Shown: positions 11,740 through 32,007 of the stretch, piece after piece | How positions within the stretch are numbered: the stretch's first letter is position 1 | How the letters are laid out: each line of letters starts with the position of its first letter | IMG/VR virus record: IMGVR_UViG_3300022748_000009 | Span: 1 to 40,892 of that record | DNA from: a virus | Length of the DNA: 40,892 nucleotides | Strand: one strand, 5' to 3' | Notes under the pieces: model-generated | What the model saw: only the letters and a program-made list of their open reading frames with translations | Database searches by the model: none | What the model was told of the DNA's origin: nothing | Made by a program: the position numbers and the translations under genes

Positions 11740-12414
11740 ATGGCGGGAACCTCAACACCTTCGTGGGCAAACTGGACAAGCAGCCCAGAAACATACGGCG
11801 CTTCAACGCCGAAAGCTGCAAACACTGCCGAAATGTTTCAAACGGTTGGCCCCATCTTGGCTATTGCTGGGATGGCCACCAGTGCCATTGGCGCGTACTA
11901 CGCAGCCAAGACACAGCAATACCAGCTTGAATCTCAGGCTTTGACAAACGACTTCCAAAAGTCAATGTCAGAGCTGAATGCCAAGAATGCTGAGTTCACC
12001 GCGCAAACCATCTTGGAGTCTGGCCAGCGCCAGATCGGAGCCGTCACAATGCGTGCTGGGAATGTCAAAGGTGCGGCTCGCGCATCGATGGCAGCTCGCG
12101 GCATTCAGGCTGGCGTAGGCTCCGCTGCTGACGTTATCGCAACAACCGACCTCATGAAAGAGGTTGACGTGAACACGATCAATGCTCGCTCGGTTCAAGC
12201 AGCCGAAGCCCAGCGCATGGCCGCTGTCAATTCGCAGAACCAAGCCATGATGGCTGGCGTGTCTGCCGACAACGCTCGCATGGGCGCGTCAACGATCAAC
12301 CCATTCATGGCTTCGACTGGCTCGTTGCTTGGCAGCGCAAGCACAGTTGCTTCTGCCTACTACCAAGACAAGCGCATGGCCGCATACGAAAACTGGCTGG
12401 CCAAACAGCAATAA
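11740..12414 (+). CDS. Internal virion (core) protein A-like
   Basis: A 224-aa protein with a hydrophobic segment (VGPILAIAGMATSAIGAYYAA) and an Ala/Gln-rich helical remainder. It is the first of three genes in the position of T7 gp14-16. Confidence 0.55.
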   Translation: MAGTSTPSWANWTSSPETYGASTPKAANTAEMFQTVGPILAIAGMATSAIGAYYAAKTQQYQLESQALTNDFQKSMSELNAKNAEFTAQTILESGQRQIGAVTMRAGNVKGAARASMAARGIQAGVGSAADVIATTDLMKEVDVNTINARSVQAAEAQRMAAVNSQNQAMMAGVSADNARMGASTINPFMASTGSLLGSASTVASAYYQDKRMAAYENWLAKQQ

Positions 12415-12424
12415 AGGGAAACAC

Positions 12425-14590
12425 ATGCCAACCGTACCAATGCTTGACACACCATCTCAGTCGCTCGATGCGGCTCAGATGCCAAACTTCACGGCCGCTG
12501 GCGTGGAGCCAATGAAGAACTTTGCGCCAGAGCAGATGAGCAAAATGGGCGCTGGCATGACCACCGCTGGCACGACCCTCATGAAGATTGGGCAAAGCAT
12601 CCAAAACGACTTAGATGATGCCAACACTAAGGCGATGGTCACATCATTCAGCGCAAACGCTCAAGCCATCTTGATGGACAAGGACGCTGGCTACCTGACC
12701 ACAGCGCAAGGCAAGAGCGCCAAAGATCGCTACGCAGCCACGCAAGAGGCGATGCTCAAAGCTCGCAAAGATGCCGAGGCTGGCCTTGAAAACGAATTTC
12801 AGCGCAAGATGTTTGCTCAGTCTGTGGACAAGCAGATGCTGCAATTCAAAGGCCAGATGGACTTGCACGCCGTCAAAGAGGTGCGCCAATACGAGAAGAA
12901 AGAGTCTGAGGCTTTCGTCAACAACCAAGCCGACTTGGCCATCAAGTCGTATGGCGTGCGCGATCAAAAAGATCAGACTGGCCGTGTGAACAACCTGTAC
13001 ACATCGAGCGTGGCCACAGGCTTGCAGACCATCGTGGACGACTTTGCCAAGGACGGCATCGCCGAAGACTCTGAGCAGGTCAAGCAAGCCAAGCAAAAGT
13101 TCACCAGCTATGTTGCAACTGGCGCAGCCACAGACATGATGCTGAACAACAAGTTCATTGAAGCACGCAAGTTTGTAGATGGCGCGTACAAGAGCGGCGA
13201 CCTCGATAGCAAGACAGCGCAGACCCTGTACAAGCAGATCGATGCTGGCTACAACAAAGAAGTGGCCACAGGTGCTGGCGACAAAATCTTCACATCGCGT
13301 GGCCCGACAGGCACTGACTTTGACAGCATCTCTGGCTGGACTATGTCGAAGGATGTCGAGGGCGGCTATGTGGCCAACGATGCTGGCAAAGGCCCGACCA
13401 ACTACGGCATCAACGGCGCTGCTTACTTTGGCGTGAAAGCCGAAGAGCTGACTGACACGCAAAAGAATTTCATCGCCAACCTGACACCAGAGAAGGCCAA
13501 GGAAATCTACCGCAAGCGCTACTGGGATGCCATCGATGCCGACAAGCTCGACCCGCGCATGCGTGCTGTTGCGTTTGATGCGGCCGTGAACCAAGGCCCA
13601 GAGACTGCCAAGCGATTGCTGGCAGAGGCTGGCAACGACCCAGAGAAGATGATCGAGCTGCGCCGCGCAGAGTACAAGAAGCTCATCAAGAGCAACCCAG
13701 AGAAGTTCGCTCAATACGAGAAGAGCTGGATGGGCCGCCTCGACAAGCTGGAGGCCAGCATCACTGGCACGCGCTCATTGTCAAGCATGCTGACCGAGGC
13801 CGACCAGATCGCAGACCCAGAGGTTCGCGACATGACGCGCCAGCGCATCAAAAACAAGTGGAGCGAAGACGAAGCGGTCAAGCGTGCAGACTATGCAGAG
13901 AAGCTGGGCAGCGCGTATGACATCGCATTCGCAAAGCTGGGTGGCTGGCGCGACATCCCTGCGCCTATGTGGGCCGACATCAAGCCAGAAGACCGCGCTC
14001 GCATGATGAACCCACCAAAGGCTGACGACCCAAGCACATTGTTTGAGCTTGAGATGAACCCAGAGCTGTGGACGAAAGAGTCCATGATGGAACGCCGTGG
14101 GCTGTTGACTGAGTCGACATTCCGCAAGTTCTATGAGCTTGGCAACGCGCCCGATTACAAAGAGAAGGTGCGCTCTGTGACGATTGACAACAAGCGTTTT
14201 TCTACCGTGATGGCTGATGCTGGCCTAAAAGACATCATGGACAGGAAAGACAAAACTGAAGTCAATCGAATCATTGGGACAATGCAAGACATCATCAGCG
14301 CAGAGCAGGTCATCAAGAAGCGACCACTCACGATGGAAGAGAAAGACTCGATCATGAAGTCTGTCGTGAAGCCTGTGAAGATTCGCGCATTGCGCGACTG
14401 GACTCCATCTTTCCTTGGGTTAGATCAAACCACAGACGAAGTCCCATACTACAAAGTCAAAGATACTCGCAACGTCATCATCCCAGACAAAGTGCGAAAT
14501 CAAATCATTGCCGACTTCACGCGCAATGGTGTCAAGTACGATGAGAAGACAATCTTCAACGCCTACATGAAAATGGAAGACCAAAAATGA
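12425..14590 (+). CDS. Internal virion protein with a GH108-type muramidase domain
   Basis: ATG 12425 follows AAAGGGAAACAC. DVEGGYVANDAGKGPTNYGI...RYWDAIDADKLDPRMRAVAFDAAVNQGPETAKRLL (about 13350-13750) matches the glycoside hydrolase 108 signature. Confidence 0.75.
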   Translation: MPTVPMLDTPSQSLDAAQMPNFTAAGVEPMKNFAPEQMSKMGAGMTTAGTTLMKIGQSIQNDLDDANTKAMVTSFSANAQAILMDKDAGYLTTAQGKSAKDRYAATQEAMLKARKDAEAGLENEFQRKMFAQSVDKQMLQFKGQMDLHAVKEVRQYEKKESEAFVNNQADLAIKSYGVRDQKDQTGRVNNLYTSSVATGLQTIVDDFAKDGIAEDSEQVKQAKQKFTSYVATGAATDMMLNNKFIEARKFVDGAYKSGDLDSKTAQTLYKQIDAGYNKEVATGAGDKIFTSRGPTGTDFDSISGWTMSKDVEGGYVANDAGKGPTNYGINGAAYFGVKAEELTDTQKNFIANLTPEKAKEIYRKRYWDAIDADKLDPRMRAVAFDAAVNQGPETAKRLLAEAGNDPEKMIELRRAEYKKLIKSNPEKFAQYEKSWMGRLDKLEASITGTRSLSSMLTEADQIADPEVRDMTRQRIKNKWSEDEAVKRADYAEKLGSAYDIAFAKLGGWRDIPAPMWADIKPEDRARMMNPPKADDPSTLFELEMNPELWTKESMMERRGLLTESTFRKFYELGNAPDYKEKVRSVTIDNKRFSTVMADAGLKDIMDRKDKTEVNRIIGTMQDIISAEQVIKKRPLTMEEKDSIMKSVVKPVKIRALRDWTPSFLGLDQTTDEVPYYKVKDTRNVIIPDKVRNQIIADFTRNGVKYDEKTIFNAYMKMEDQK

Positions 14591-17500
14591 GCGCTTATGA
14601 CGACTACATCTCGCAACTGAAAAAAGAGCAAGACCGCAGCACAGCACTTGCTACTTCTTTGGGTGACGCTGTTGACACAAACCCAAACGACTTTGCCGAG
14701 ATGAAGCGCCTGTCGCGTGCGGCAGACATGAGCATCGAAGCAGTCCCAGAGTTCAAGTCTGAGGCGAAGACAGCAAAGCTGTTACAAGACGTTGGCGGCG
14801 CTGACAAGTTTTGGAAAGAAGCGCCACGCACTTCCAACTTCTTGGTCAATCCAGACAACTCGAAAATCTCGCATGACCAGATGCAGAACATGGGCCAATT
14901 TGAGCGCACGTTCCGCATGTTCGGTGGAAGCATGGAAGAAGGCGCTGGCATGAGTGTGAGCGGCGTTGGCCGCATGCTTGAGATTGCACAGCGCAATACC
15001 ATCGAAGGCTTTGCCAACATGTTTTTGCCAGAGCCACAGAAAGGCCCAACTGGCATCCAGCCATCAAAGCCAACTGCTGATTCGCTCATCGGCCCAATGC
15101 TTGGCGAAGACTGGGTGACAGTCGGTAAAAAACTCAAAGATCAAGCCAAAGATGAAATCATGGTTCCAGCGAGCCAGCAAACATTCATCGACAAAGTAAC
15201 TGGCGGTGTTGGCCAAGTTGCTGGCCAAGCCATCACTCACATTTTGACTGGCGGTTTTGTAAGCGGCCTCAACTTGTGGGCGCAAGGCGTTGACACGGTC
15301 TACGATAAGGTTGAAAAAGACAAAGCAGCCCAAGGGTACAAAGACATTGCCGCGCTCGGTGGCGGTGCTGTTACAGCTTTGACAGAGCGCTGGGCATTGG
15401 ACAAGATGCTTGGCCCATTGGCTGTGCCAGTAAAAAATCAAGTTGCTGCCGTGCTTGCTCGTATTGGTGTTGCAACAGCATCTGAGGGTGGCCAAGAATT
15501 TACGGAGAACATTCTTCATGACACATTACGCAAGGCGCTCACTAACCGCGATGCCGAAATTGATTTTGGACAAGCAGGTGAAGAGGGTACTGTCGGTGCT
15601 GCTGTTGGTGGCACTGTCCGTTCTATCGTTGAAGCAGCCCTTCACATTAAACGCCGCACGTCAAGAGCAGAAGAAGTTGAGCGCAAAACGCAAGTCCTCG
15701 AAACATTAAACAACTTGGCTGCGGCCAATGAGGTTCGCTCGCGTGACGCTGAAACATTTGAGAGCTGGATTGACCAAGTGTCAGAAGACAGCCCAGTGCA
15801 AAACGTCTACTTGAGCAGCGATGTGCTGCGCCAATCTGGCTTGGCTGAGAGCTTGGTGAAAGCTGCGCCAGCGTTTGAGGATGCCATCAAAGAATCGTTG
15901 TCCACTGGCCGCGAGCTGGAGATTCCTGTCGCTGACTACATGAAGGTCATTGCACCAACAGAACTCAGCTCTCAGATCATTGACGACCTCCGCATCGAGG
16001 GCGAAACAATGACTCGCCGCGAAGCTCGCGAGTACATCGAGGTCGAGTCTAAAAAGCTCGAAGCTCAAATTGAAGAGCGCGTCAAAGCCGCACAGCAAGA
16101 CGAAGGCTTCATCAAATCCAGCAAAGAAGTGCAGCAGGTCATGTTTGACCAGATCAAAGCGACTGGCATCTATCCTGCCAACGTGGCTCGCGATCAATCG
16201 TTCTTCCAAGCCAAGGTGTATGAGAACCTCGCCGCTCGCTTGGGCATGACGCCAATGGAAGCGTACAACGCATTCCCGAACGTCATCGCCAAAGACGAAG
16301 GTGGCATGATGGTCGAAGGCGACCAGATGTTCAACCAGCGCGGCGAGATTCAGCCTGAGTCGACAGCATTCAAGGAGTTCTTCAAGGACACCAAGATTGT
16401 TGACAAAGAAGGCAAGCCGCTGAAGATGTACCACGGCACAGCCCAGAACATTCACCAGTTCCGCGCAAAGCAAGCTGGCGCAATCTTCACCACACCAGAC
16501 CCTGAGTTCGCCGATGACTACACGGAGATGAGCAAGGACTGGATGGTCGACCACTACGATGAGATTCTGAGCCGCCAAGAAGTCGAGGCGGCAATGAATG
16601 TTGCGGCACAACGCATTCGCGAAGAGTTTGCAAACGACCCAGACAAGGCTGAAATCCTTGAGCATGAGATGCGTGTTGGCGACAGGTTGACAAACATCAA
16701 GGCACGCAGCATCTTCAACAAGGCGATTGCCGAGCAGATGCCATCTGGCCCGAACATCATGCCTGTGTACGTCAATGCGACCAATCCGTTTGACTACCAA
16801 AACCCAGAGCATGTGGCCGCTGTTGTGGCCGAGATGAACAAGCAGACCGACACTTGGGGCCGTCCTCGCGGTGATGCCGCCAAGAACTTCTTGGCATCTG
16901 GCAACTGGGAAGAGATCGAGAAGACTCGCACGCAAGATGCAATCAAGGCGCTTGGCTTTGATGGCTTCTATGTGAAAGAGGGTAAGCACAAAAACCTTGC
17001 CGTCTACAACTCGAACCAAGTCAAGTCGGTGTTCAACCAGAACCCAACTGAGTCGCCAGAAATTCTTAACCAAAGAGGTAAAGGAAAAGTCGCGACTGAG
17101 GATGCGTTTGACGAAGACGCTTTGAAGTTGGAAGACGAGATCGCTGACGCTGGCGGTGAAGTCAAGGATGTGATGCAAGTCGATCAGTTGCTCGACAGCA
17201 AAGACATCCCGATCATCACGATGCAAGACCTCGTTGGCATGAACATCTTCCCAACGATTGCTGACCGCACTGCCGCTGCTGCGCTGTACACAGGCATCGA
17301 CTCATCGCAAATCAACTTGGCCATCCCATTGCTCGGCGGCCCATTCTTTCCGCTTCGCCTCACCAACGCTCTGTCCAACATCGTGTGGGCAAACCGTGGC
17401 AAGGGAGTGACATCTCAGAAGGCTGCAAAGCTGAAAGAGGGCGCGAACTACATGATGGTGTTGATGGGTGATGCAGACATGCACCAGTCCAACAGCACAG

Positions 17501-20500
17501 TGGCTGCTGCTTTCATCTCCACGCTTGAGGCATGGAATCGTGATGGCCGCATCACCAAGAAAAACGTCAAGGCACTTGGCGAGCTGGTGAAAGAGACTGG
17601 CGCAAAAGCCGTGGCTCTGTCAAAAGAAAAGCTGGCCGTGGCTGAAGCAGAGCTGGCCGCAGCCAAGACAGACAAGGAAATTGAGAAGGCAAGAAAAGCA
17701 GTCGCCAAAGACAAGAAGGCGATTGCCACCAACCAGTACATCGAGAACTTTGTTGGCTTTGAAGACTCGGCCGCGCTGCACCAGTACATGGACGGCATCT
17801 CGTTTGACGCTCGCAAGCGCGTGCTTGAAGTGATGGCCAGCAAGCAAGCTCTTGATCTTGGCGCACCTCCAATGGCACGCATCTTGGAGGCGACACGCGA
17901 GCCAAGTCTGGCTGGCCATCGCTGGGGTGACGGTGTCATCTTGCTTGAGGTCGACCAAGAGTCGCCACAGGTTGACCTTGGCACTGAAGGCACAACGCCT
18001 CACCCAGACTTCCCTGTTGGCATCCGTGGCCGTGTGGTTGGCAAGATGAACGCGCCAATCAACTACGAGCTGCTGTGGCAAGACTGGATGGCAGAAAACT
18101 CAGACAAGGCATCACCACGCCGCGCATTTGAGTTGAGCAAGCCCATCGTCAGCGTCACTCAAGAGCTGGTCGACAGCATCGGGCCAATCGTTCAAAAGAA
18201 CATCAGCTCGGCAAAGCAAGCACGCCTCGCGGCTGACTTTGCTGCCAACAACTGGAAGACATCGGACGATGCCAAGAAGGACGGCGGCGTATCTCCGCAA
18301 GAGTTCTTGGATGCAATCGACAACTCGCCAGCCAAGAATGTGCTGGGCAAGTACACCCTGTCTGAGCTGAAAAAGGGCATCAAAGACAAGACCATGAAGG
18401 TCTTCCAGCTAGGCGATGGCCAAGCGTTTTTCTTGCTCAAGACTGAGGGTGAGCGCGTCATCTTGGACACTTGGGTGGCCAATGAGCAGGGCGCAAACGG
18501 CATCATTGAGCCAGCCATCATGCTCAAGGCAATCAGCGAAGGCGCAACCGAGGTGAGCAGCTACGCCGTCAAGAGCGCCGAGTTCCCACAAGGCTTCTTG
18601 CCCACGCTGTACAGCGCCTTTGGCTTCACAGAAAACGGCAAAACACAGCCACTTTCTAAGCTGAAACTTACAAGCAAACAACTCGCTGACACGGTAAAAT
18701 ACTGGGCAGAGAGCAACACAGGTTTTGATGCAGCCAACGGCATGCCAGAACTTGTCACTATGGAGTGGAAACATGGAAAAGAACAACGAGAAGGCATCAT
18801 CGAGCGCTATCTCCAAAGCGGCTTTGCAAGCCTTTACTCAGGAGGAGTTGACGCAAATGCCGAAGCAGCTTCGTCTGAGTTTGATGACGATAATCAGCAG
18901 CAGGTTGAACAGGCACGACTTGCCAACTCCATCGAAAGAGGAATTGCTGGGTATCAAGAAAATGCTGCTCAACCACTTGACGCAGCCGCAACTCAACGAG
19001 TTGTCCAATCGATTGCCAGCCTAACTGACAATGAACTCAAGAATCTTGGCCTGACTTCAGAAGACAGAGCTTCGGTTCAAAAGGTCATTGGCCAGATGTC
19101 TGGCGTGCTTAACCAACGCGCCACACCGCAAAGCCTCGCAGAGAAATCTCGCACAGAATCATCGGCAAAGACTGGTTTGCTCAACCAGACAAACCGTGGC
19201 GGCTTTGCACCAAGCACATTGACCACCATCCTCACCAAAGAGGCTGACTACTCCACGCTGCACCATGAGACTGTCCACTTCGTTGTGGAGGCGTACACAC
19301 GCATCGCGCAGCAAGAGAACGCGCCAGCTCAGATCGTTGCCGACTTGGAGGCGCTCATCAAGTTTGGTGGCGTTGACAGCATCGAGCAATGGAATACCAT
19401 GAGCTTGGAGGAGCGCCGTCCAGCGCAAGAGGCCATCGCATACGCCTCAGAGATTTACTTCTTTGAGGGCAAGGCTCCAAGCGTTGAGCTTGAGTCTGTG
19501 TTTGACCGTCTGGCTCAGTGGATGCGCGACATCTACACATCAATCGTGGACGAGTTGAACGCCATGTACAAGCAAGAGTTTGGCAAGGATTTGCCGATCT
19601 TGAATGACGAAGTGCGCTCGGTGTTTGACCGCATGCTGGCCAGCGATAAGCAAATCCAGCAAGCGCAGGAAATCCGCGACATGGTTCCAATGTTCCAGAC
19701 TCAAGAAGAGTCAGGCATGGATGACGCGCAATGGCAAGCCTACAAGGCGATGGCCGATGAGGCAGACCAAGCTGGCGTGATGGATTTGACAAAGGCATCG
19801 TTGCGCCAAATCAAGTGGCTCGACAACGCACGCAGCAAGCTGCTCAAAGAGATGCAGAAGAAGACCGCAGCCCAGCGCAAGATCGTGCGCGAGCAGGTCG
19901 AGGAAGAGGTCAACAACGACCCTGTCTACATGGCAATCAACTTTCTCAAGCGCGGCGAGACAAAAGATGCTGACGGCAACCCTATCAAGGTGACGCAGGG
20001 CCACAAGCTCTCGTTGGCCGAAGTCAAAGCCCTCTACCCAGAGAGCGACACTAGCCTTGCCGCAGCACCCGACTTCACCACGCTTGGCTATGGCAAATAC
20101 GGCATGCTTGGTGAGCAGGGCATCTCGCCTGACTTGGTAGCTGGCATGTTCGGCTTCCAGTCTGGTGACGCTCTGGTGCGCTCGCTGGTCGATGCCAAGC
20201 CAATCAAAGAAGAGATCGAGGCTCGCACTGACCAACGCATGCTTGAAGAGCATGGCGAAATGTTTGACCCCAAGAGCGTTGACGCTGAAATCGAAAAGGC
20301 TCTGCACAACGAGGCACGCGCTCGTTTTGTGGCCGTAGAGTTGCGCTTCTTGGCCAAAGCCACGGCTCCTGTGCGCCTGATGCTGCAAGCCGCCAAGAAA
20401 GCAGCAAAGCAGATCATCACCAACAAGAAGGTCGGCGACATCAACCCTCGCGAATACTCCATCGCCGAAGGCCGCGCCGCAAAGCAAACAACTGCCGCCA

Positions 20501-23124
20501 TGAAAAAGGGCGACAGCTTGGCCGCGCAAAAAGCAAAGCAGCAACAACTACTCAACAACCAGTTGGCCGCGCAAGCCATCGAGGCCAAGGCCGAGATCGA
20601 CAAAGCCATCGATGGGTTCCGCAAGCTGTTCCGCTCTGACGAGAAGATCGCCAAGGGTCGCAACATGGACTTGGTCAACGCCGCTCGCGCCATCCTTGGC
20701 TACTACGGCATCGGCCCCAAGGGCAAGTCACCGCTCGACTTTATCGACACGCTGCGCTCATACAACCCAGACTTCTACGCCGACATCGAGCCGTTGATTC
20801 TGGAGGCTGCAAGCGGTTCCAAGCCATACACAGAGATGACCCTCGATGAGTTCCGCAGCTTGAACGATGCGATCAACTCGTTGTGGTTCCAATCAAAGCG
20901 CGACAACGAAGCGATGATTGAGGGCCGCATGGTTTCCATCGAGCAAATTCGCGGAGAGTTGGTTGGCCGTCTTGAAGAGATTGGCATCCCAGAAGTGGTG
21001 GCGGGTGAGCAAGCGCCGTTCACCAAAAAAGAAAAGTTCATGAAGCGCCTGTTGAACATCAAGGCGATTGGTCGCCGTGTTGAATACTGGGCAGACTCGA
21101 TGGACGGCTCCGCAGGTGGCAAGGCATTCACGCAATACATCTGGCGACCAGTGCGCCATGCGTTGGACAACTACCGTATTGACCGCAACAAGTACGTCAG
21201 CCAGTACGTTGACATGGTTGCAAAGCTCACGCTTGGCAAAGGCAAGATCGATGCAAGCGAAGAGATCGGCTACACGTTTGGCGATGAAAACGGCGGCAGC
21301 GGCAAAGCTGAATTGCTGGGCGCGATGCTGCACATGGGCAACGAATCCAACTTTAAGAAGCTGCTGGTCGGCCGTGGCTGGGGTTCAATCAACCAGAACG
21401 GCGTGCTGGACGCATCACGTTGGAATGCTCTCATCAACCGCATGATCGCTGAAGGCCATCTCACCAAGGCTGACTTCGACTTCTTGCAGTCGGTGTGGGA
21501 CTTGAACGAGGAAATCAAGCCTCTAGCCCAGAAGGCTCACCACGACATGTTTGGCTACTACTTCAAAGAAGTTGAGGCCACACCGCTGGTTACTCCGTTT
21601 GGCACTTACCGTGGTGGCTACGTCCCAGCGAAGACCGACCCAGACATGGTGCGTGACGCGCAAAAGAATGCCAAGATGGAGGCGCTGGAAAGCGACTTCC
21701 GTCAGTCCATGCCAAGCACTGGCCTTGGCTTCACCAAAGGCCGTGTCGAATACAACAAGCCGCTGTCGCTTGACCTGCGCGTGATGACCAAGCACATAGA
21801 TGACGTGATTCGTTTTGCTCATGTGCAACCAGCCATCAAGGACGTGCTGAAGATCATTCGCAGCCGCGACTTTGCAGACAACCTGTCTCGCATCGACTCA
21901 GAGGTTGTGGAGGGTATGTTGCTGCCGTGGCTCAACCGCGCAGCTCGCCAGATCACCAGCGAGGTTGGCCTGAACTCATCCATCGACAACTTCTGGCGCA
22001 CCGTGCGTCAGCGCACTGGCGTGGCCATCATGTTCGGCAACTTGAGCAACGCGCTGCAACAGTTCACTGGCCACTTCTTGACTGGCGTGAAGGTTGACAA
22101 GAGCAACATGAAAGCTGCGTTGGCCATGTACATGAAGAGTCCAAACTCTGTGACTCAGGGCGTTGTTGAGGCTTCCAAGTTCATGGAAGATCGCTTGAAG
22201 AATCAAATCTTTGACATTCAAGACAACCTCAACCAGTTGCTGCTGAACCCCACAAAGTTTGAAAAAGTGCAAGCATGGACAAACCAGCACGGCTACTTCT
22301 TGCAGACTGCATTTCAAAACCAAGTGGACATCGTTGCATGGGTTGGCGCGTACAACCAAGCGCTTGAGCAGCTCGGCTCTGGATATGACAATGCAGAGGC
22401 TCACGCCGAAGCAGTCCATCGCGCTGACGCTGTGGTGCGTATGACGCAGTCAAGCCTGACCGCAGAAGACAAATCTGCCTTCGAGGTTGGCACGCCGTTC
22501 ATGGCCACACTGCTTCAGTTCTCTGGCTACTTCAACATGATCGCCAACTTGAACGCCACGGAGTTCACAAAGATTTTCCGTGATTTAGGTTGGCGCGGCC
22601 ACAAGGGCATGCTGTTCCAGAAGTACCTGCTTGGCTTTGCCTTGCCGATGATCGTGGCCGATGCCATCGTTCGCACGCTTGGCGGTGGCTGGGATGACGA
22701 AGACGATGACGGCTACCTTGACGAGTTCATGGAGTGGTTCTTTGGCTCTCAGATCAAGGGCGCTGTGGCTATGGTTCCAGTGCTTGGCCCAGCCGTGTGG
22801 TCGCTCACCAACGTGGCCAACGACAAACCATACGATGACAAAATGTCATCAAGCCCAGCCGTGTCTACGCTCGAAGGTTCGACATTTGGCGTGGCCAAGG
22901 CAGCAATCAACCTTGTTGACAAAGACAAGGAAGTCACAGGAAAGAACGTAAGGGACGTTCTGACTGCAATCAGCTTGGCCACTGGCGTGCCAGTCGCAGT
23001 GCTTGGCCGACCAGTTGGCTACGCTGTTGACGTGAACCGTGGCAAAGTAAATCCAACCAGCAAAGCTGACTACGCTCGCGGCCTAATCACAGGCAAGGCA
23101 AGCGAAGAGTCAGTGAAGAAGTAA
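14587..23124 (+). CDS. Giant (2845 aa) polyvalent internal virion/ejection protein
   Basis: One uninterrupted ORF whose ATG overlaps the upstream stop (ATGA). It contains an ART-PolyVal-like region (MYHGT...AIFTTPDPEFADDY...MPVYVNATNPFDY...NLAVYNSNQVKSVF) and an HExxH region (ADYSTLHHETVHFVVE). The C-terminus has an acidic patch and hydrophobic segments. Confidence 0.9.
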   Translation: MSAYDDYISQLKKEQDRSTALATSLGDAVDTNPNDFAEMKRLSRAADMSIEAVPEFKSEAKTAKLLQDVGGADKFWKEAPRTSNFLVNPDNSKISHDQMQNMGQFERTFRMFGGSMEEGAGMSVSGVGRMLEIAQRNTIEGFANMFLPEPQKGPTGIQPSKPTADSLIGPMLGEDWVTVGKKLKDQAKDEIMVPASQQTFIDKVTGGVGQVAGQAITHILTGGFVSGLNLWAQGVDTVYDKVEKDKAAQGYKDIAALGGGAVTALTERWALDKMLGPLAVPVKNQVAAVLARIGVATASEGGQEFTENILHDTLRKALTNRDAEIDFGQAGEEGTVGAAVGGTVRSIVEAALHIKRRTSRAEEVERKTQVLETLNNLAAANEVRSRDAETFESWIDQVSEDSPVQNVYLSSDVLRQSGLAESLVKAAPAFEDAIKESLSTGRELEIPVADYMKVIAPTELSSQIIDDLRIEGETMTRREAREYIEVESKKLEAQIEERVKAAQQDEGFIKSSKEVQQVMFDQIKATGIYPANVARDQSFFQAKVYENLAARLGMTPMEAYNAFPNVIAKDEGGMMVEGDQMFNQRGEIQPESTAFKEFFKDTKIVDKEGKPLKMYHGTAQNIHQFRAKQAGAIFTTPDPEFADDYTEMSKDWMVDHYDEILSRQEVEAAMNVAAQRIREEFANDPDKAEILEHEMRVGDRLTNIKARSIFNKAIAEQMPSGPNIMPVYVNATNPFDYQNPEHVAAVVAEMNKQTDTWGRPRGDAAKNFLASGNWEEIEKTRTQDAIKALGFDGFYVKEGKHKNLAVYNSNQVKSVFNQNPTESPEILNQRGKGKVATEDAFDEDALKLEDEIADAGGEVKDVMQVDQLLDSKDIPIITMQDLVGMNIFPTIADRTAAAALYTGIDSSQINLAIPLLGGPFFPLRLTNALSNIVWANRGKGVTSQKAAKLKEGANYMMVLMGDADMHQSNSTVAAAFISTLEAWNRDGRITKKNVKALGELVKETGAKAVALSKEKLAVAEAELAAAKTDKEIEKARKAVAKDKKAIATNQYIENFVGFEDSAALHQYMDGISFDARKRVLEVMASKQALDLGAPPMARILEATREPSLAGHRWGDGVILLEVDQESPQVDLGTEGTTPHPDFPVGIRGRVVGKMNAPINYELLWQDWMAENSDKASPRRAFELSKPIVSVTQELVDSIGPIVQKNISSAKQARLAADFAANNWKTSDDAKKDGGVSPQEFLDAIDNSPAKNVLGKYTLSELKKGIKDKTMKVFQLGDGQAFFLLKTEGERVILDTWVANEQGANGIIEPAIMLKAISEGATEVSSYAVKSAEFPQGFLPTLYSAFGFTENGKTQPLSKLKLTSKQLADTVKYWAESNTGFDAANGMPELVTMEWKHGKEQREGIIERYLQSGFASLYSGGVDANAEAASSEFDDDNQQQVEQARLANSIERGIAGYQENAAQPLDAAATQRVVQSIASLTDNELKNLGLTSEDRASVQKVIGQMSGVLNQRATPQSLAEKSRTESSAKTGLLNQTNRGGFAPSTLTTILTKEADYSTLHHETVHFVVEAYTRIAQQENAPAQIVADLEALIKFGGVDSIEQWNTMSLEERRPAQEAIAYASEIYFFEGKAPSVELESVFDRLAQWMRDIYTSIVDELNAMYKQEFGKDLPILNDEVRSVFDRMLASDKQIQQAQEIRDMVPMFQTQEESGMDDAQWQAYKAMADEADQAGVMDLTKASLRQIKWLDNARSKLLKEMQKKTAAQRKIVREQVEEEVNNDPVYMAINFLKRGETKDADGNPIKVTQGHKLSLAEVKALYPESDTSLAAAPDFTTLGYGKYGMLGEQGISPDLVAGMFGFQSGDALVRSLVDAKPIKEEIEARTDQRMLEEHGEMFDPKSVDAEIEKALHNEARARFVAVELRFLAKATAPVRLMLQAAKKAAKQIITNKKVGDINPREYSIAEGRAAKQTTAAMKKGDSLAAQKAKQQQLLNNQLAAQAIEAKAEIDKAIDGFRKLFRSDEKIAKGRNMDLVNAARAILGYYGIGPKGKSPLDFIDTLRSYNPDFYADIEPLILEAASGSKPYTEMTLDEFRSLNDAINSLWFQSKRDNEAMIEGRMVSIEQIRGELVGRLEEIGIPEVVAGEQAPFTKKEKFMKRLLNIKAIGRRVEYWADSMDGSAGGKAFTQYIWRPVRHALDNYRIDRNKYVSQYVDMVAKLTLGKGKIDASEEIGYTFGDENGGSGKAELLGAMLHMGNESNFKKLLVGRGWGSINQNGVLDASRWNALINRMIAEGHLTKADFDFLQSVWDLNEEIKPLAQKAHHDMFGYYFKEVEATPLVTPFGTYRGGYVPAKTDPDMVRDAQKNAKMEALESDFRQSMPSTGLGFTKGRVEYNKPLSLDLRVMTKHIDDVIRFAHVQPAIKDVLKIIRSRDFADNLSRIDSEVVEGMLLPWLNRAARQITSEVGLNSSIDNFWRTVRQRTGVAIMFGNLSNALQQFTGHFLTGVKVDKSNMKAALAMYMKSPNSVTQGVVEASKFMEDRLKNQIFDIQDNLNQLLLNPTKFEKVQAWTNQHGYFLQTAFQNQVDIVAWVGAYNQALEQLGSGYDNAEAHAEAVHRADAVVRMTQSSLTAEDKSAFEVGTPFMATLLQFSGYFNMIANLNATEFTKIFRDLGWRGHKGMLFQKYLLGFALPMIVADAIVRTLGGGWDDEDDDGYLDEFMEWFFGSQIKGAVAMVPVLGPAVWSLTNVANDKPYDDKMSSSPAVSTLEGSTFGVAKAAINLVDKDKEVTGKNVRDVLTAISLATGVPVAVLGRPVGYAVDVNRGKVNPTSKADYARGLITGKASEESVKK

Positions 23125-29828: not shown

Positions 29829-30022
29829 CCCTTATCGGTCACAAATCGGTTTGACTTCTCGAACGCCTCAACGTCCTCGATGCGGTAGCGCACCTCGGAG
29901 TTGCGGCCTTCACCCAGCTTGATGTAGTCGGGGCCGACATTGGCCACACGCCATTTGCGTATGGTGCTGTCGGACACTCCCCAACGCTCGCACAGGTCTT
30001 TAGGCTTGAGCAGCTTGGGCAT
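29825..30022 (-). CDS. AlpA/excisionase-family HTH protein
   Basis: LLKPKDLCERWGVSDSTIRKWRVANVGPDYIKLGEGRNSEVRYRIEDVEAFE fits the HTH_17/AlpA pattern. Confidence 0.65.
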   Translation of the reverse strand: MPKLLKPKDLCERWGVSDSTIRKWRVANVGPDYIKLGEGRNSEVRYRIEDVEAFEKSNRFVTDKG

Positions 30023-30830
30023 CTTGTGCCTCCTCTGCTGGCAGCACTTCGCCAGTGTCTGCGTCCACGGTTCCCATAGAACGCTTCAGGCGGCTCAAAG
30101 GCGCAGCTTGGGCCTCTGGTTCGGGCGTGATGTTTACAGGCGCTCTGCGCTCGATCTGGTCAAATCCTGAAGCATCGTTGTCTGACTCGAATACTTGGTC
30201 GACATCGGCGCTGGATGGCAGACGTTTGGCCATGCGGCGAATGACCGTCTTCTTGGCCATCTCATCCCACCAGTCAGCCCAAGGGCCAAACTTGCCAGCG
30301 CGGCTGGCTGCACGCACCTTCTCGACATCGGCCACGCTCATGACCTCGCGGTAGATCGCGCCGTCCTTGGTCTTGGCCACAGCGTACACAGCAAGCTGCT
30401 GGCCACGGTCTGCGCCCAAGAATGGCTTGTGAACGATGCGCTCATCATCGCCCAGCTCATACTCGAAGAAGTCTTTGTCGTACACCACGTTGGCGCTGAT
30501 GCTGGCCAGCTCGCCTGAGTTGCGAATCTTTTTCAAGATGCCGCCAACCATTGGCATGTACTGCACCTTCTTGCCGTCCTTGGTGTTGAAGATGACAGGC
30601 GCAGCTTCGCGGCCATCAAGCAGCAAGCCATCTTGTGCGGCCTTCATGCACGCGCCCAACAGGCTGCGGCGGTCAGCGCTCAACAGCTCTGGGTTCATCT
30701 GCACCGCTGTCAGTGTGGTGCGAATGAATTTCTCGACTGGGATTTGTGGCGGCAATGCAGAGGCGAACTCTGGTTGCATCTTCACAAGCGTGCCGCGCAT
30801 CGCTTCCATAGGGGTCAATTCTGTACTCAT
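30000..30830 (-). CDS. recT: RecT-family single-strand annealing recombinase
   Basis: KFIRTTLTAVQMNPELL...LLGACMKAAQDGLLLDGREA...QYMPMVGGILKKIRNSGE...KTVIRRMAKRLP is a typical RecT signature. The gene is paired with a YqaJ-type exonuclease. Confidence 0.85.
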   Translation of the reverse strand: MSTELTPMEAMRGTLVKMQPEFASALPPQIPVEKFIRTTLTAVQMNPELLSADRRSLLGACMKAAQDGLLLDGREAAPVIFNTKDGKKVQYMPMVGGILKKIRNSGELASISANVVYDKDFFEYELGDDERIVHKPFLGADRGQQLAVYAVAKTKDGAIYREVMSVADVEKVRAASRAGKFGPWADWWDEMAKKTVIRRMAKRLPSSADVDQVFESDNDASGFDQIERRAPVNITPEPEAQAAPLSRLKRSMGTVDADTGEVLPAEEAQDAQAAQA

Positions 30831-31060
30831 GCTGTTGCTCCTTCAATCAAATCAGTTTGCTCTGCGATTGTTGATGATACCTCAACAGTGGCTCCGTGTT
30901 TGCTCATAAGCATTGCCACATCGACAGCCTTTGCAACTTCGATGGTGTACTGTTTGCCAGCGATGTGGCGCAGGGCTTGCGCTTGGCTGGATGCTTGGAC
31001 TAGGTACACGTTGTTGTTGCCTGTCACTTTGTAGATGCGTTGTTCTGCTGCCATTTTCAT
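30827..31060 (-). CDS. Hypothetical protein in the recombination module
   Basis: A 77-aa ORF with translationally coupled overlaps on both sides. RIYKVTGNNNVYLVQASSQAQALRHIAG is a pattern I recall near phage annealase genes. Confidence 0.6.
   Translation of the reverse strand: MKMAAEQRIYKVTGNNNVYLVQASSQAQALRHIAGKQYTIEVAKAVDVAMLMSKHGATVEVSSTIAEQTDLIEGATA
30866..30886 (-). promoter_or_regulatory. Operator-like site GATTGTTGATGATnnnTCAAC, copy a
   Basis: Matches 32250-32270 at 18 of 21 positions. Contains the inverted repeat GTTGA-N7-TCAAC. It lies 36-56 nt upstream of the recT start, inside the upstream CDS. Confidence 0.4.
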
Positions 31061-32007
31061 TTCTCCTTTTTTGCTGTGAAGCGGAAGTTGCGGAAACCCT
31101 TGCGAGCGCCGTAGTAAGTGCCGACCATGTCGGCGGTGATCTGCGTACCCAAACTGTCTTTTGTTGTACCGCAGGAAATCGTGCCAAGCGAGCTGACCAC
31201 TTTGCTGGCGCTGCCGATGGCCATGAGAATCTCAGCCTTGGTGGCTTCGCGAATGTCGGTCTGCTCTTTGATGGCTTGGCCAAGGTAGTGGTAGCGCTCG
31301 ATGAGCATGTCCAGCTCTGGTGTTGACTCGGCCACCAAGCCATCGATGGAGTCGCCGCGCAACTGCTTGATGATGAACTCAGCGTCAGCCGAATAGTCTG
31401 GGTTTGGCGCAGCGTTGGCCTCAATCATTGCCCAGAACGCTTTGATCTTGGCGCGAATGTCTGCGCCAATTTTGTGGTCACGGCTACGCAGCACAATCTT
31501 CAGGGTGTTGCCACCAACCAGCAGACACAGAGCCGTCCACTCATAGCCTGTCAGCTCCATCTGGTGCTGGATTTGCAGCTCGATGTGTTCGGGCGCTTCA
31601 ATGTTGCCAGCGCCGTCATCGAGCCAGTTGCGTGCGTACTGCAATCCGTCCACGTTCTTGACTTCCAAGATGCCTTTGCCTTTGACGCTGTCGAGAATCT
31701 CGAAGTCAAAGCTCGACCCCATACGCAGGTCTGGGTCACGCATGTACACCTTGAGCGGCGCAATGCTCCAACCCATCTCTTCGGCCGCGCCGTGGGCGAT
31801 TGCAGCCTCAAGACGGTTGCCCCACTTCATGCGCTCGTTGGCCTCAAATTTGACCGACACGCCATCACGCTTTTCGTGGAACAGCTCGAACTCTGTCTTG
31901 TATGGTGACAGGCCGTACAGAGCTGGTATCTCTGTGCTGGTAATGTCTTTCTTGCGCTCACCCAGCCATTGGGCCTCGCTGGTGATTTGGATAATCTCTA
32001 CTGTCAT
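31057..32007 (-). CDS. YqaJ-type (lambda Exo-like, PD-(D/E)XK) recombination exonuclease
   Basis: ITSTEIPALYGLSPYKTEFELFHEK...RMKWGNRLE...MGSSFDFEI...GILEVKNV has the typical YqaJ motifs. Confidence 0.8.
   Translation of the reverse strand: MTVEIIQITSEAQWLGERKKDITSTEIPALYGLSPYKTEFELFHEKRDGVSVKFEANERMKWGNRLEAAIAHGAAEEMGWSIAPLKVYMRDPDLRMGSSFDFEILDSVKGKGILEVKNVDGLQYARNWLDDGAGNIEAPEHIELQIQHQMELTGYEWTALCLLVGGNTLKIVLRSRDHKIGADIRAKIKAFWAMIEANAAPNPDYSADAEFIIKQLRGDSIDGLVAESTPELDMLIERYHYLGQAIKEQTDIREATKAEILMAIGSASKVVSSLGTISCGTTKDSLGTQITADMVGTYYGARKGFRNFRFTAKKEK

Follow-up and report, generated by a model that had tools for sequence, protein, structure and literature searches.

A giant podoviral protein with a variable cargo slot between two conserved regions, a probable ejection protein of the IVP-D type

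Polyvalent proteins, in which several enzymes are combined in one polypeptide encoded among virion genes, were already described by Iyer, Burroughs, Anand, de Souza and Aravind (2017, PMC5512222), and internal virion proteins (IVPs), including homologs of IVP-D, are known to host domains destined for the cytoplasm (Hardies et al. 2016, PMC4819975). The present analysis concerns a giant protein encoded in 40,892 bases of viral DNA (IMG/VR virus record IMGVR_UViG_3300022748_000009), the whole of which is called the window below. Its open reading frame (ORF) lies on the plus strand at 14587..23124 and specifies 2845 aa. With a probability of roughly 0.8, the product is an ejection protein of the IVP-D type: its N- and C-terminal parts would serve packaging and the conduit, and a slot between them would deliver an ADP-ribosyltransferase (ART), a GNAT-type module together with a module B, and a module A into the cytoplasm early in infection.

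Among the IVP-D homologs listed for the epsilon15 subgroup is Bbp10 of Bordetella phage BPP-1 (2052 aa; PMC4819975, Table 2). It resembles the giant protein in gene position, in homology over the N- and C-terminal parts, in its HExxH motif (HESGH) and in a hydrophobic-x-Q motif at both slot edges (FDQ and FYQ). In contrast, its slot of ~163 aa is devoid of ART, module A, module B and GNAT, and the lytic domain encoded upstream is an SLT transglycosylase and not GH108. Among cultured or assembled relatives, the closest are ORF45 of Limnohabitans phage DC33 (3125 aa) and its counterparts in two Manatee Spring phages, ctQRb9 (3209 aa) and ctEw122 (2792 aa). All three display the same synteny, LPD22 and ART-PolyVal, and a C core that is 35-63 % identical, whereas the slot content following ART is unrelated. 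These genes are annotated in GenBank as 'hypothetical protein' (DC33) or 'crystallin beta/gamma motif-containing protein' (ctQRb9 and ctEw122).

Like the polyvalent proteins of PMC5512222, the giant protein is a multi-enzyme polypeptide encoded among virion genes and includes ART-PolyVal, LPD22, a GNAT beside ART and a HExxH domain. It differs in that the HExxH region was not matched by Pfam MPTase-PolyVal, nor modules A and B by the Pfam LPD models. Neither the layout of a slot between flanks nor the linker motif was found in the passages of that source that were consulted. T7 gp16 (IVP-D) and N4 gp50 share with the giant protein the rank of largest internal protein, a gene downstream of gp14 and gp15 equivalents, a helical build and freedom from cysteine, and N4 gp50 also carries cytoplasm-destined cargo and a HExxH domain ahead of its IVP-D-like C-terminal part (PMC4819975 and PMC5512222). 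No significant direct match in sequence or structure was obtained with either of them; T7 gp16 carries a transglycosylase instead of cytoplasmic enzymes, and the cargo of N4 is an RNA polymerase. Finally, gp47 of the podovirus phi24B (2811 aa) is likewise giant and polyvalent and combines LPD domains with a metallopeptidase domain; proteomics detected it in virions, and it was proposed as an ejection protein (bioRxiv 10.64898/2026.04.10.717836). It belongs to another podovirus group, displays LPD5, LPD1, LPD38 and a MuF-C type peptidase, and is likened here by description, not by homology.

Two conserved flanks around a variable slot

Pairwise blastp against the four phage homologs (DC33, ctQRb9, ctEw122 and BPP-1) aligned aa 1 to ~625 and ~1510 to 2845 of the giant protein, and between these only ART. 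The N region was common to the same four phages and to 13 metagenomic relatives, and both flanks were recovered in 17 proteins (16 distinct from the giant protein; P0004 is its 89 % variant). The intervening slot ranged from ~163 aa in BPP-1 up to ~2076 aa in P0034. Given two conserved flanks around so variable a middle, the protein is therefore regarded as a carrier with a cargo slot and not as a simple string of modules. The original prediction, made from the letters of the window alone, had described such a string; its modules are present, but they occupy one variable slot between two conserved regions. The following features were delimited (linker motifs and neighbouring genes are given further below).

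14587..23124, plus strand: whole giant ORF (probable internal virion/ejection protein), 2845 aa, 313.8 kDa, ATG start
14587..16329, plus strand: conserved N region, aa 1-581, from blastp, ending in the first NQ motif
14653..14931, plus strand: LPD22 domain, aa 23-115 (Pfam PF18834, E 6e-14)
16330..19191, plus strand: variable cargo slot, aa 582-1535, between N region and C core
16372..17049, plus strand: ART-PolyVal ADP-ribosyltransferase module, aa ~596-821 (Pfam PF18760, E 9e-19, in two stretches)
17185..17556, plus strand: module A, alpha/beta, aa ~867-990, modelled with high confidence and holding IPLLGGPFF and GDADMHQSN
17557..17745, plus strand: long helical hairpin between modules A and B, aa ~991-1053 (AlphaFold2/DSSP helices 165-199 and 203-227 of the model)
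17767..18384, plus strand: module B, aa ~1061-1266, with conserved R1076 and H1139
18394..18819, plus strand: predicted GNAT-fold module, aa ~1270-1411, from structure model, Foldseek and conservation
19183..23121, plus strand: conserved C core, aa 1533-2845, nearly all helical, matching phrog_9880
19192..19536, plus strand: HExxH domain, aa ~1536-1650, from alignment and structure model
22615..23004, plus strand: C-terminal membrane-like region, with hydrophobic segments at aa 2677-2700, 2723-2745 and 2788-2806 flanking the acidic patch WDDEDDDGYLDEF at aa 2702-2714

LPD22 scored 45.7 and 52.5 bits against a gathering cutoff of 28.6 and was detected by Pfam in 14 of 16 family members; it is therefore considered part of the carrier. 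Within the slot, Pfam revealed ART-PolyVal in eight of these 16 members, the predicted RNase PBECR5 in two and Phage_L5_gp82 in one. A second HExxH motif was observed inside the slot of some members (P0008 at aa 1055, P0077 at aa 703 and P0056 at aa 985). The ART-PolyVal and LPD22 matches were already precomputed for the exact giant protein in a public collection. One polypeptide thus combines disparate domains, i.e. ART-PolyVal, LPD22, a predicted GNAT fold, a HExxH...E arrangement and modules A and B, and since both named Pfam families were defined on polyvalent proteins and exceeded their curated cutoffs, the polyvalent design claimed for the protein is upheld.

The breadth of the carrier was apparent from structure comparison: Foldseek of the C core against BFVD returned 93 viral proteins at E <= 1e-3, all of them C-terminal pieces of giant proteins. 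Their names included 'large polyvalent protein associated domain', 'ART-PolyVal-like', 'NAT_SF', 'nuclease', 'MuF C-terminal' and 'crystallin beta/gamma motif', and the C core is therefore viewed as a widespread carrier for diverse cargo. Searches for homologous proteins with short queries yielded only metagenomic fragments.

The integrity of the ORF was also established. Its translation contained zero internal stops, it covered 20.9 % of the window, and its start codon shares bases with the TGA that ends the preceding gene (ATGA). The identical protein was found on seven contigs, with sample records at ENA, JGI and Logan (four places shown); three of these contigs measured ~40.9 kb, which is the window length, and P0004 likewise comprises exactly 2845 aa. 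A frameshift, a sequencing error or an artefactual fusion were therefore excluded, and an uninterrupted ORF occupying about one fifth of the genome, as first proposed, is confirmed.

Assignment to IVP-D relies on Bbp10, which blastp matched with E 2e-131 in the C core (30 % identity) and E 2e-43 in the N region (28 %). The published assignment of Bbp10 carries this link because direct comparison of the C core with T7 gp16 by hhalign failed. The protein further displayed the position after IVP-B and IVP-C equivalents, the large size and the extensive helices that typify IVP-D. Its position, that of an internal virion protein after two smaller core proteins, already recognised in the original prediction, was borne out by gp14-like and gp15-like genes upstream and a tail fibre gene downstream.

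Cysteine was entirely missing from the 2845 aa of the giant protein, against ~18.6 expected (the other ORFs of the window average 0.66 % Cys), and likewise from the two proteins encoded just upstream (224 and 753 aa), 3822 residues in all over 11740-23124. The 16 homologs of 2052-4060 aa displayed zero to two cysteines each, and T7 gp15, T7 gp16 and the 3500-aa N4 gp50 display none. The cargo part was as free of cysteine as the carrier. Such absence would be expected if passage through the oxidising periplasm required unfolding of the entire chain with its cargo, and a shortage of cysteine might be an easy way to recognise ejected proteins.

Cargo modules and the HExxH domain

The ART module obtained 49.9 bits in the context of the whole protein and 69 bits as a segment, against a gathering cutoff of 31.2. 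ART-PolyVal was described as a member of the H-Y-D clade, with His on strand 1, Tyr on strand 2 and Asp on strand 5 (PMC5512222). Here, the catalytic positions would correspond to H616 (YHGT), F634 at the strand-2 position and D792 (GFDG), residues being assigned to strands by alignment only. Position 634 was Y in DC33, ctQRb9 and ctEw122 and F in P0003, P0006, P0008, P0009 and P0011. The module here also has a helical insert of ~65 aa, which it shares with two metagenomic relatives.

The middle region (aa 827-1510) was modelled by AlphaFold2 (AF2) from an alignment of 50 sequences with a mean predicted local distance difference test (pLDDT) score of 89.5 and a predicted template modelling (pTM) score of 0.87. 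The model comprised module A, the hairpin, module B and a final alpha/beta domain, with pLDDT >90 in module A and in the final GNAT-like part. Conserved residues were D893, D905, H966, N969 and R988 in module A, and the conserved polar residues of modules A and B make both look like enzymes or specific binders. The IPLLGGPFF landmark reported earlier was located at aa 913. No match to this region was found in Pfam, NCBIfam or PDB sequences, and its profile gave nothing meaningful against PDB sequences; tblastn returned none from 50,697 GenBank phage records and 72,556 plasmids (PLSDB), and a pattern scan of GTDB genomes for the middle region gave no match either. In contrast to these collections, phmmer against 1.84 billion cluster representatives retrieved 282 proteins at E <= 1e-3, mostly of 2000-6000 aa. 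Module A (aa ~840-1046) and a ~450-aa unit (aa ~1050-1503) occurred independently among them; in most relatives this unit is formed by module B and the GNAT module travelling together.

A GNAT fold is predicted for aa ~1270-1411 on the basis of the confident AF2 model, although E-values were weak. Four of the five best PDB matches of the cargo model in Foldseek were GNATs (3fix, 3ey5, 4my3 and 4nf1; probability 0.63-0.94, E 0.09-0.3), the other listed matches being helical proteins of low probability. Conserved residues included N1299, G1302, G1305 and Y1342-x3-G1346-F1347, and this YxxxGF motif was kept in 43-44 of 44 sequences, so that what had been put forward as a weakly GNAT-like segment is now backed by structure prediction, Foldseek and conservation. 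The Pfam GNAT models did not match the module. Its derivation from a captured IVP-A was considered and rejected, comparison with epsilon15 gp13 (annotated as GNAT-like) revealing no similarity. One family of phage GNATs is typically located next to ART in polyvalent proteins (PMC5512222), and the layout of ART and GNAT observed here fits that neighbourhood.

The C core opens with the HExxH domain. In an alignment of 25 sequences (23-42 % identical to the query, plus one 94 % variant), H1560, E1561, H1564, E1615, E1622, G1628, P1631 and Y1650 were invariant, as was a GGYxP motif at aa 2343-2347. The AF2 model of the C core (pLDDT 77.5, pTM 0.63) was nearly all helical; it placed two short strands ahead of the HExxH helix (23-42 of the model) and the glutamates on a later helix (75-95), with pLDDT ~90. 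Alignment and model thus agree on a HExxH followed by a downstream Glu on a later helix, which is the gluzincin signature, and a gluzincin arrangement was described for the metallopeptidases of polyvalent proteins (PMC5512222). A zinc metallopeptidase is most likely, as judged from alignment and model. NCBIfam and PDB sequences provided no match to the HExxH region, and neither the whole protein nor the C-core profile gave anything meaningful against PDB sequences. A weak match was obtained by hhalign between the C core and the HExxH region of N4 gp50 (E 0.025).

The hydrophobic and acidic C-terminal region was conserved in the alignment of relatives. Several further elements foreseen in the original prediction were recovered: the ART-like region (Pfam, as above), the HExxH region (HETVH at aa 1560), the very long helical region (the C-terminal part in the AF2 model) and the acidic patch WDDEDDDGYLDEF at aa 2702 with its hydrophobic neighbours. 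Of the Pfam families proposed for verification, ART-PolyVal and LPD22 were matched, but MPTase-PolyVal was not. As a separate observation, the invariant RGGYxPxxxDP (aa 2342-2352, 21610-21642) was aligned with HKGTYVPHVYDR of T7 gp16, and the next KGRVE with T7 KARVD; this alignment (hhalign E 0.23, non-significant) may be a remnant of shared descent or a product of chance.

Proposed delivery, linker motifs and rival explanations

What we infer as to virion location, ejection, enzyme activities, targets and cleavage can be set out as a sequence of events. The carrier (LPD22, aa 116-581 and the C core) would be packed in the capsid with the gp14-like and gp15-like proteins, would exit via the tail at infection and would help to build a conduit across the envelope, its C-terminal hydrophobic segments engaging the inner membrane. 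The cargo enzymes would then work in the cytoplasm of the cell just infected, ahead of phage gene expression, modifying host proteins or nucleic acids for takeover or anti-defence, as T4 Alt and the N4 virion RNA polymerase (vRNAP) do. GNAT enzymes need acyl-CoA, and the need for NAD+ and acyl-CoA points to the cytoplasm as site of action. In a less certain step, the HExxH domain would free the cargo by cutting hydrophobic-N-Q linkers. These linkers were recognised as a short motif, [FL]NQ[RT].

16330..16341, plus strand: linker motif 1, FNQR, aa 582-585, at the N region/ART boundary
17065..17076, plus strand: linker motif 2, LNQR, aa 827-830, at the ART/module A boundary (AF2 pLDDT <50 for aa 827-838)
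19108..19119, plus strand: linker motif 3, LNQR, aa 1508-1511, at the end of the B-GNAT unit (pLDDT <50)
19180..19191, plus strand: linker motif 4, LNQT, aa 1532-1535, directly before the C core, 28 aa upstream of HExxH

Composition alone would predict 0.076 occurrences of this motif instead of four. The number four and the position at module boundaries, both announced in the original prediction, were retained, the sites coinciding with independently found homology breakpoints; the first coordinate was corrected from 16327 to 16330. The three modelled sites (aa 827, 1508 and 1532) lie in segments of pLDDT <50 at the ends of two AF2 models. An origin of the motifs as DNA repeats or recombination scars was rejected: the four sites use different codons and display no flanking DNA similarity, and the recurrence is therefore at the protein level. 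In homologs including BPP-1, the position aligned with motif 1 was occupied by FNQ, FDQ, YDQ or FEQ, and the aligned positions in relatives overall by FNQ, FDQ, YDQ, FEQ, LNQ, MNQ, LEQ, LRQ, LAQ or FAQ. The slot of BPP-1 is bordered by QFDQE, closing the N region, and KFYQG just before the C core, and [LF]NQ was encountered ~28-34 aa upstream of HExxH in several relatives. Among 28 family proteins, 631 of 3074 ends of blastp high-scoring segment pairs lay within 15 aa of a hydrophobic-hydrophobic-x-Q, against 363 +/- 43 after randomisation of motif positions (none of 500 randomisations reached 631), although these ends are non-independent and the conserved C-core boundary contributes many of them. 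To judge from these sequences, hydrophobic-x-Q is a real, position-conserved punctuation of the slot, cleavage being only a candidate role.

This dependence among alignment ends is one of several points that weigh against delivery and release as set out above. The loose hydrophobic-x-Q pattern was present in 45 % of random 45-aa windows, and [LFMIV]NQ was barely enriched across the family (56 against 40.7 expected). The exact [FL]NQ[RT] was rejected as a family-wide motif, since it was encountered only in the giant protein and its 89 % relative. The HExxH region had no Pfam match at E <= 10 except Tox-MPTase4 (E 0.046, 14.1 bits against a cutoff of 25), and Foldseek of the 1200-residue C-core model against PDB returned only generic helical or membrane proteins with probability <= 0.09, without a link to zincins or T7 gp16. 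As to the cargo, F634 in place of the family Tyr makes ART activity less than certain, Foldseek E-values of the GNAT module reached 0.5, and in its pyrophosphate loop N1299-E-Q-G1302-A-N-G1305 (strand 4/helix 3) the glycines are conserved but their spacing is non-canonical relative to Q/R-x-x-G-x-G/A. As to the ancestry of the C core, hhalign gave only weak or non-significant results: T7 gp16 gave a non-significant E of 0.23-0.44, and a profile of seven sequences of the epsilon15 gp17 family gave three collinear weak hits (E 0.009, 0.17 and 0.021); epsilon15 gp16 and the C-terminal part of N4 gp50 were also non-significant. Packaging in the virion is itself something we infer from position, homology, precedent and absence of cysteine.

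HExxH domains were proposed to release parts of polyvalent proteins by autoproteolysis (PMC5512222). For the present protein, it is judged rather unlikely that the cis-encoded HExxH domain sets the cargo free by acting on the NQ linkers. A wider version is doubtful to a slightly greater degree: the protein would be a self-processing injected effector polyprotein whose gluzincin cuts the hydrophobic-N-Q sites punctuating the slot and frees ART, the GNAT-based enzyme and modules A and B (two enzymes, on this reading, with neither a matching sequence family nor an evident neighbour among solved structures) into the cell ahead of the DNA, the motif being a general rule of swap and release. The same ejection protein may instead never be cut, an alternative that comes somewhat close to an even chance without attaining it. 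The NQ motifs would then be flexible linkers or junctions of module exchange, the cargo would stay attached to the conduit at the inner membrane during its action, and the HExxH domain would serve structural zinc binding, cleavage of peptidoglycan or host proteins, or encapsidation. N4 vRNAP, which also has a HExxH domain, is reported to be packaged uncleaved and ejected unprocessed (PMC5512222), and the authors on phi24B suggested a peptidoglycan role for their metallopeptidase domain (bioRxiv 10.64898/2026.04.10.717836), although here a muramidase is already supplied by the upstream protein. Absence of the exact motif beyond the closest relative and the chance frequency of the loose pattern also suit an uncut protein. 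Less easily accommodated are the excess of four same-type motifs, the codon differences and absent DNA similarity that argue for selection at the protein level, the retention of hydrophobic-x-Q across relatives even where flanking modules differ, and the roughly constant spacing (~28-34 aa) between the last motif and the invariant HExxH in several relatives.

Two other explanations depart further from an ejected cargo. As delivery is deduced indirectly and a late structural gene implies presence of the protein in the producer cell, the enzymatic modules could act there or in the assembling head late in infection, without being injected, and only the carrier would matter at entry. This is improbable in view of the covalent position of the modules within a protein whose flanks match a published IVP-D homolog, and of a cargo as free of cysteine as the carrier and as known ejected proteins; free-standing late enzymes would need no insertion in an ejection protein, and T4 Alt and N4 vRNAP provide precedents for delivery (PMC5512222). 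A purely structural protein or an artefactual gene fusion, with domain matches as decayed relics, could draw on the lack of family assignment over most of the length and on the F replacing the family Tyr in ART. It is scarcely credible, however, with an identical ORF on seven contigs from several sample records, a layout shared by relatives of 2052-4060 aa, Pfam scores well above cutoffs, polar residues strongly conserved in every module and a cargo model of pLDDT 89.5.

Genomic setting and significance

The structural genes of the window were found in the order portal (PF12236), epsilon15 GP7-family capsid (PF20911), tail tube A, tail tube B, gp14-like, gp15-like, giant protein and tail fibre, and this gene order was common to all four inspected relatives (DC33, ctQRb9, ctEw122 and BPP-1). 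The two genes directly upstream of the giant ORF were as follows.

11740..12414, plus strand: gp14-like internal virion protein, 224 aa, no cysteine (PHROG 418 'internal virion protein', E 8e-9)
12329..14590, plus strand: gp15-position protein, 753 aa, with GH108 muramidase domain and no cysteine; its stop overlaps the giant ORF start

The 224-aa protein also matched Pfam T7_gp14, but below threshold (E 5e-4). Relatives differed in the lytic domain of the gp15-position protein (window 12329-14590 compared with L004 4654-6816, L003 3629-6001 and L002 2482-4671): it is GH108 here, whereas BPP-1 Bbp11 has a soluble lytic transglycosylase, ctEw122 a 'peptidase family M23' and ctQRb9 a 'lysozyme'. 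Exchange of an enzymatic module is therefore seen in the upstream ejection protein as well.

The nearest records were those of DC33, ctQRb9 and ctEw122, with BPP-1 more distant, followed in similarity by Caulobacter, Xanthomonas, Pseudomonas, Acinetobacter and Vibrio podoviruses. A strictly T7-like (Autographiviridae) genome was ruled out by the epsilon15 GP7-family capsid, by the lack of an ORF large enough for a single-subunit RNA polymerase and by the BPP-1-like relatives; by its gene content the window is a BPP-1/epsilon15-like podovirus genome. The T7 gp16-like reading of the original prediction consequently holds by gene position but not for the phage as a whole. The large terminase gene, of which only the C-terminal 278 aa remain (16-852), is cut by the window start. 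Considering this split and the length of the contigs carrying the identical giant protein (40,892-40,921 bases), the window is probably a complete, circularly permuted genome.

Other genes of the window included a 363-aa ORF at 821-1912, between the terminase fragment and the portal, with an Asp/Asn beta-hydroxylase domain (PF05118, E 8e-11) and a weak GNAT match (Acetyltransf_10, E 6e-4, below threshold), an unusual gene at such a position. A recombination pair was encoded on the minus strand, i.e. a RecT-like annealing protein (30000-30830) and a RecE-like exonuclease (31057-32007).

The podovirus DC33 has been cultured; its icosahedral head measures 74.5 nm and its tail 32 nm, and the paper describing it does not discuss the giant gene (PMC12195039). 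Its GenBank record (PQ492659.1) bears the taxonomy Monodnaviria ... Inoviridae, yet it is a 39-kb double-stranded DNA podovirus (PMC12195039), which looks like a misclassification of the record. By our estimate, the 74.5-nm head seems large for a 39-kb genome; speculatively, it might offer room for several copies of a >300-kDa protein.

With polyvalent proteins and cytoplasmic domains in IVP-D homologs already published, the value of this locus lies in its details and not in a new principle. New elements are an explicit slot with a conserved region on either side, an invariant HExxH...E...E at the head of the carrier in all members (BPP-1 included), a motif that punctuates the slot, a cargo devoid of cysteine and two confidently folded modules without described relatives. 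Counterparts of modules A and B were missing from Pfam, NCBIfam, PDB sequences, GenBank phages and PLSDB plasmids, but the modules recur in 282 metagenomic protein clusters. The protein offers a clean, bounded example in which carrier and cargo slot are separable by comparison with BPP-1, and its four precise candidate cleavage sites and its invariant HExxH...E...E site are open to mutation. If the rules of the slot hold, such carriers could be adapted by engineering to bring proteins of choice into bacteria. Effectors that enter together with the DNA would precede phage gene expression, which makes them prime candidates for host takeover and anti-defence.

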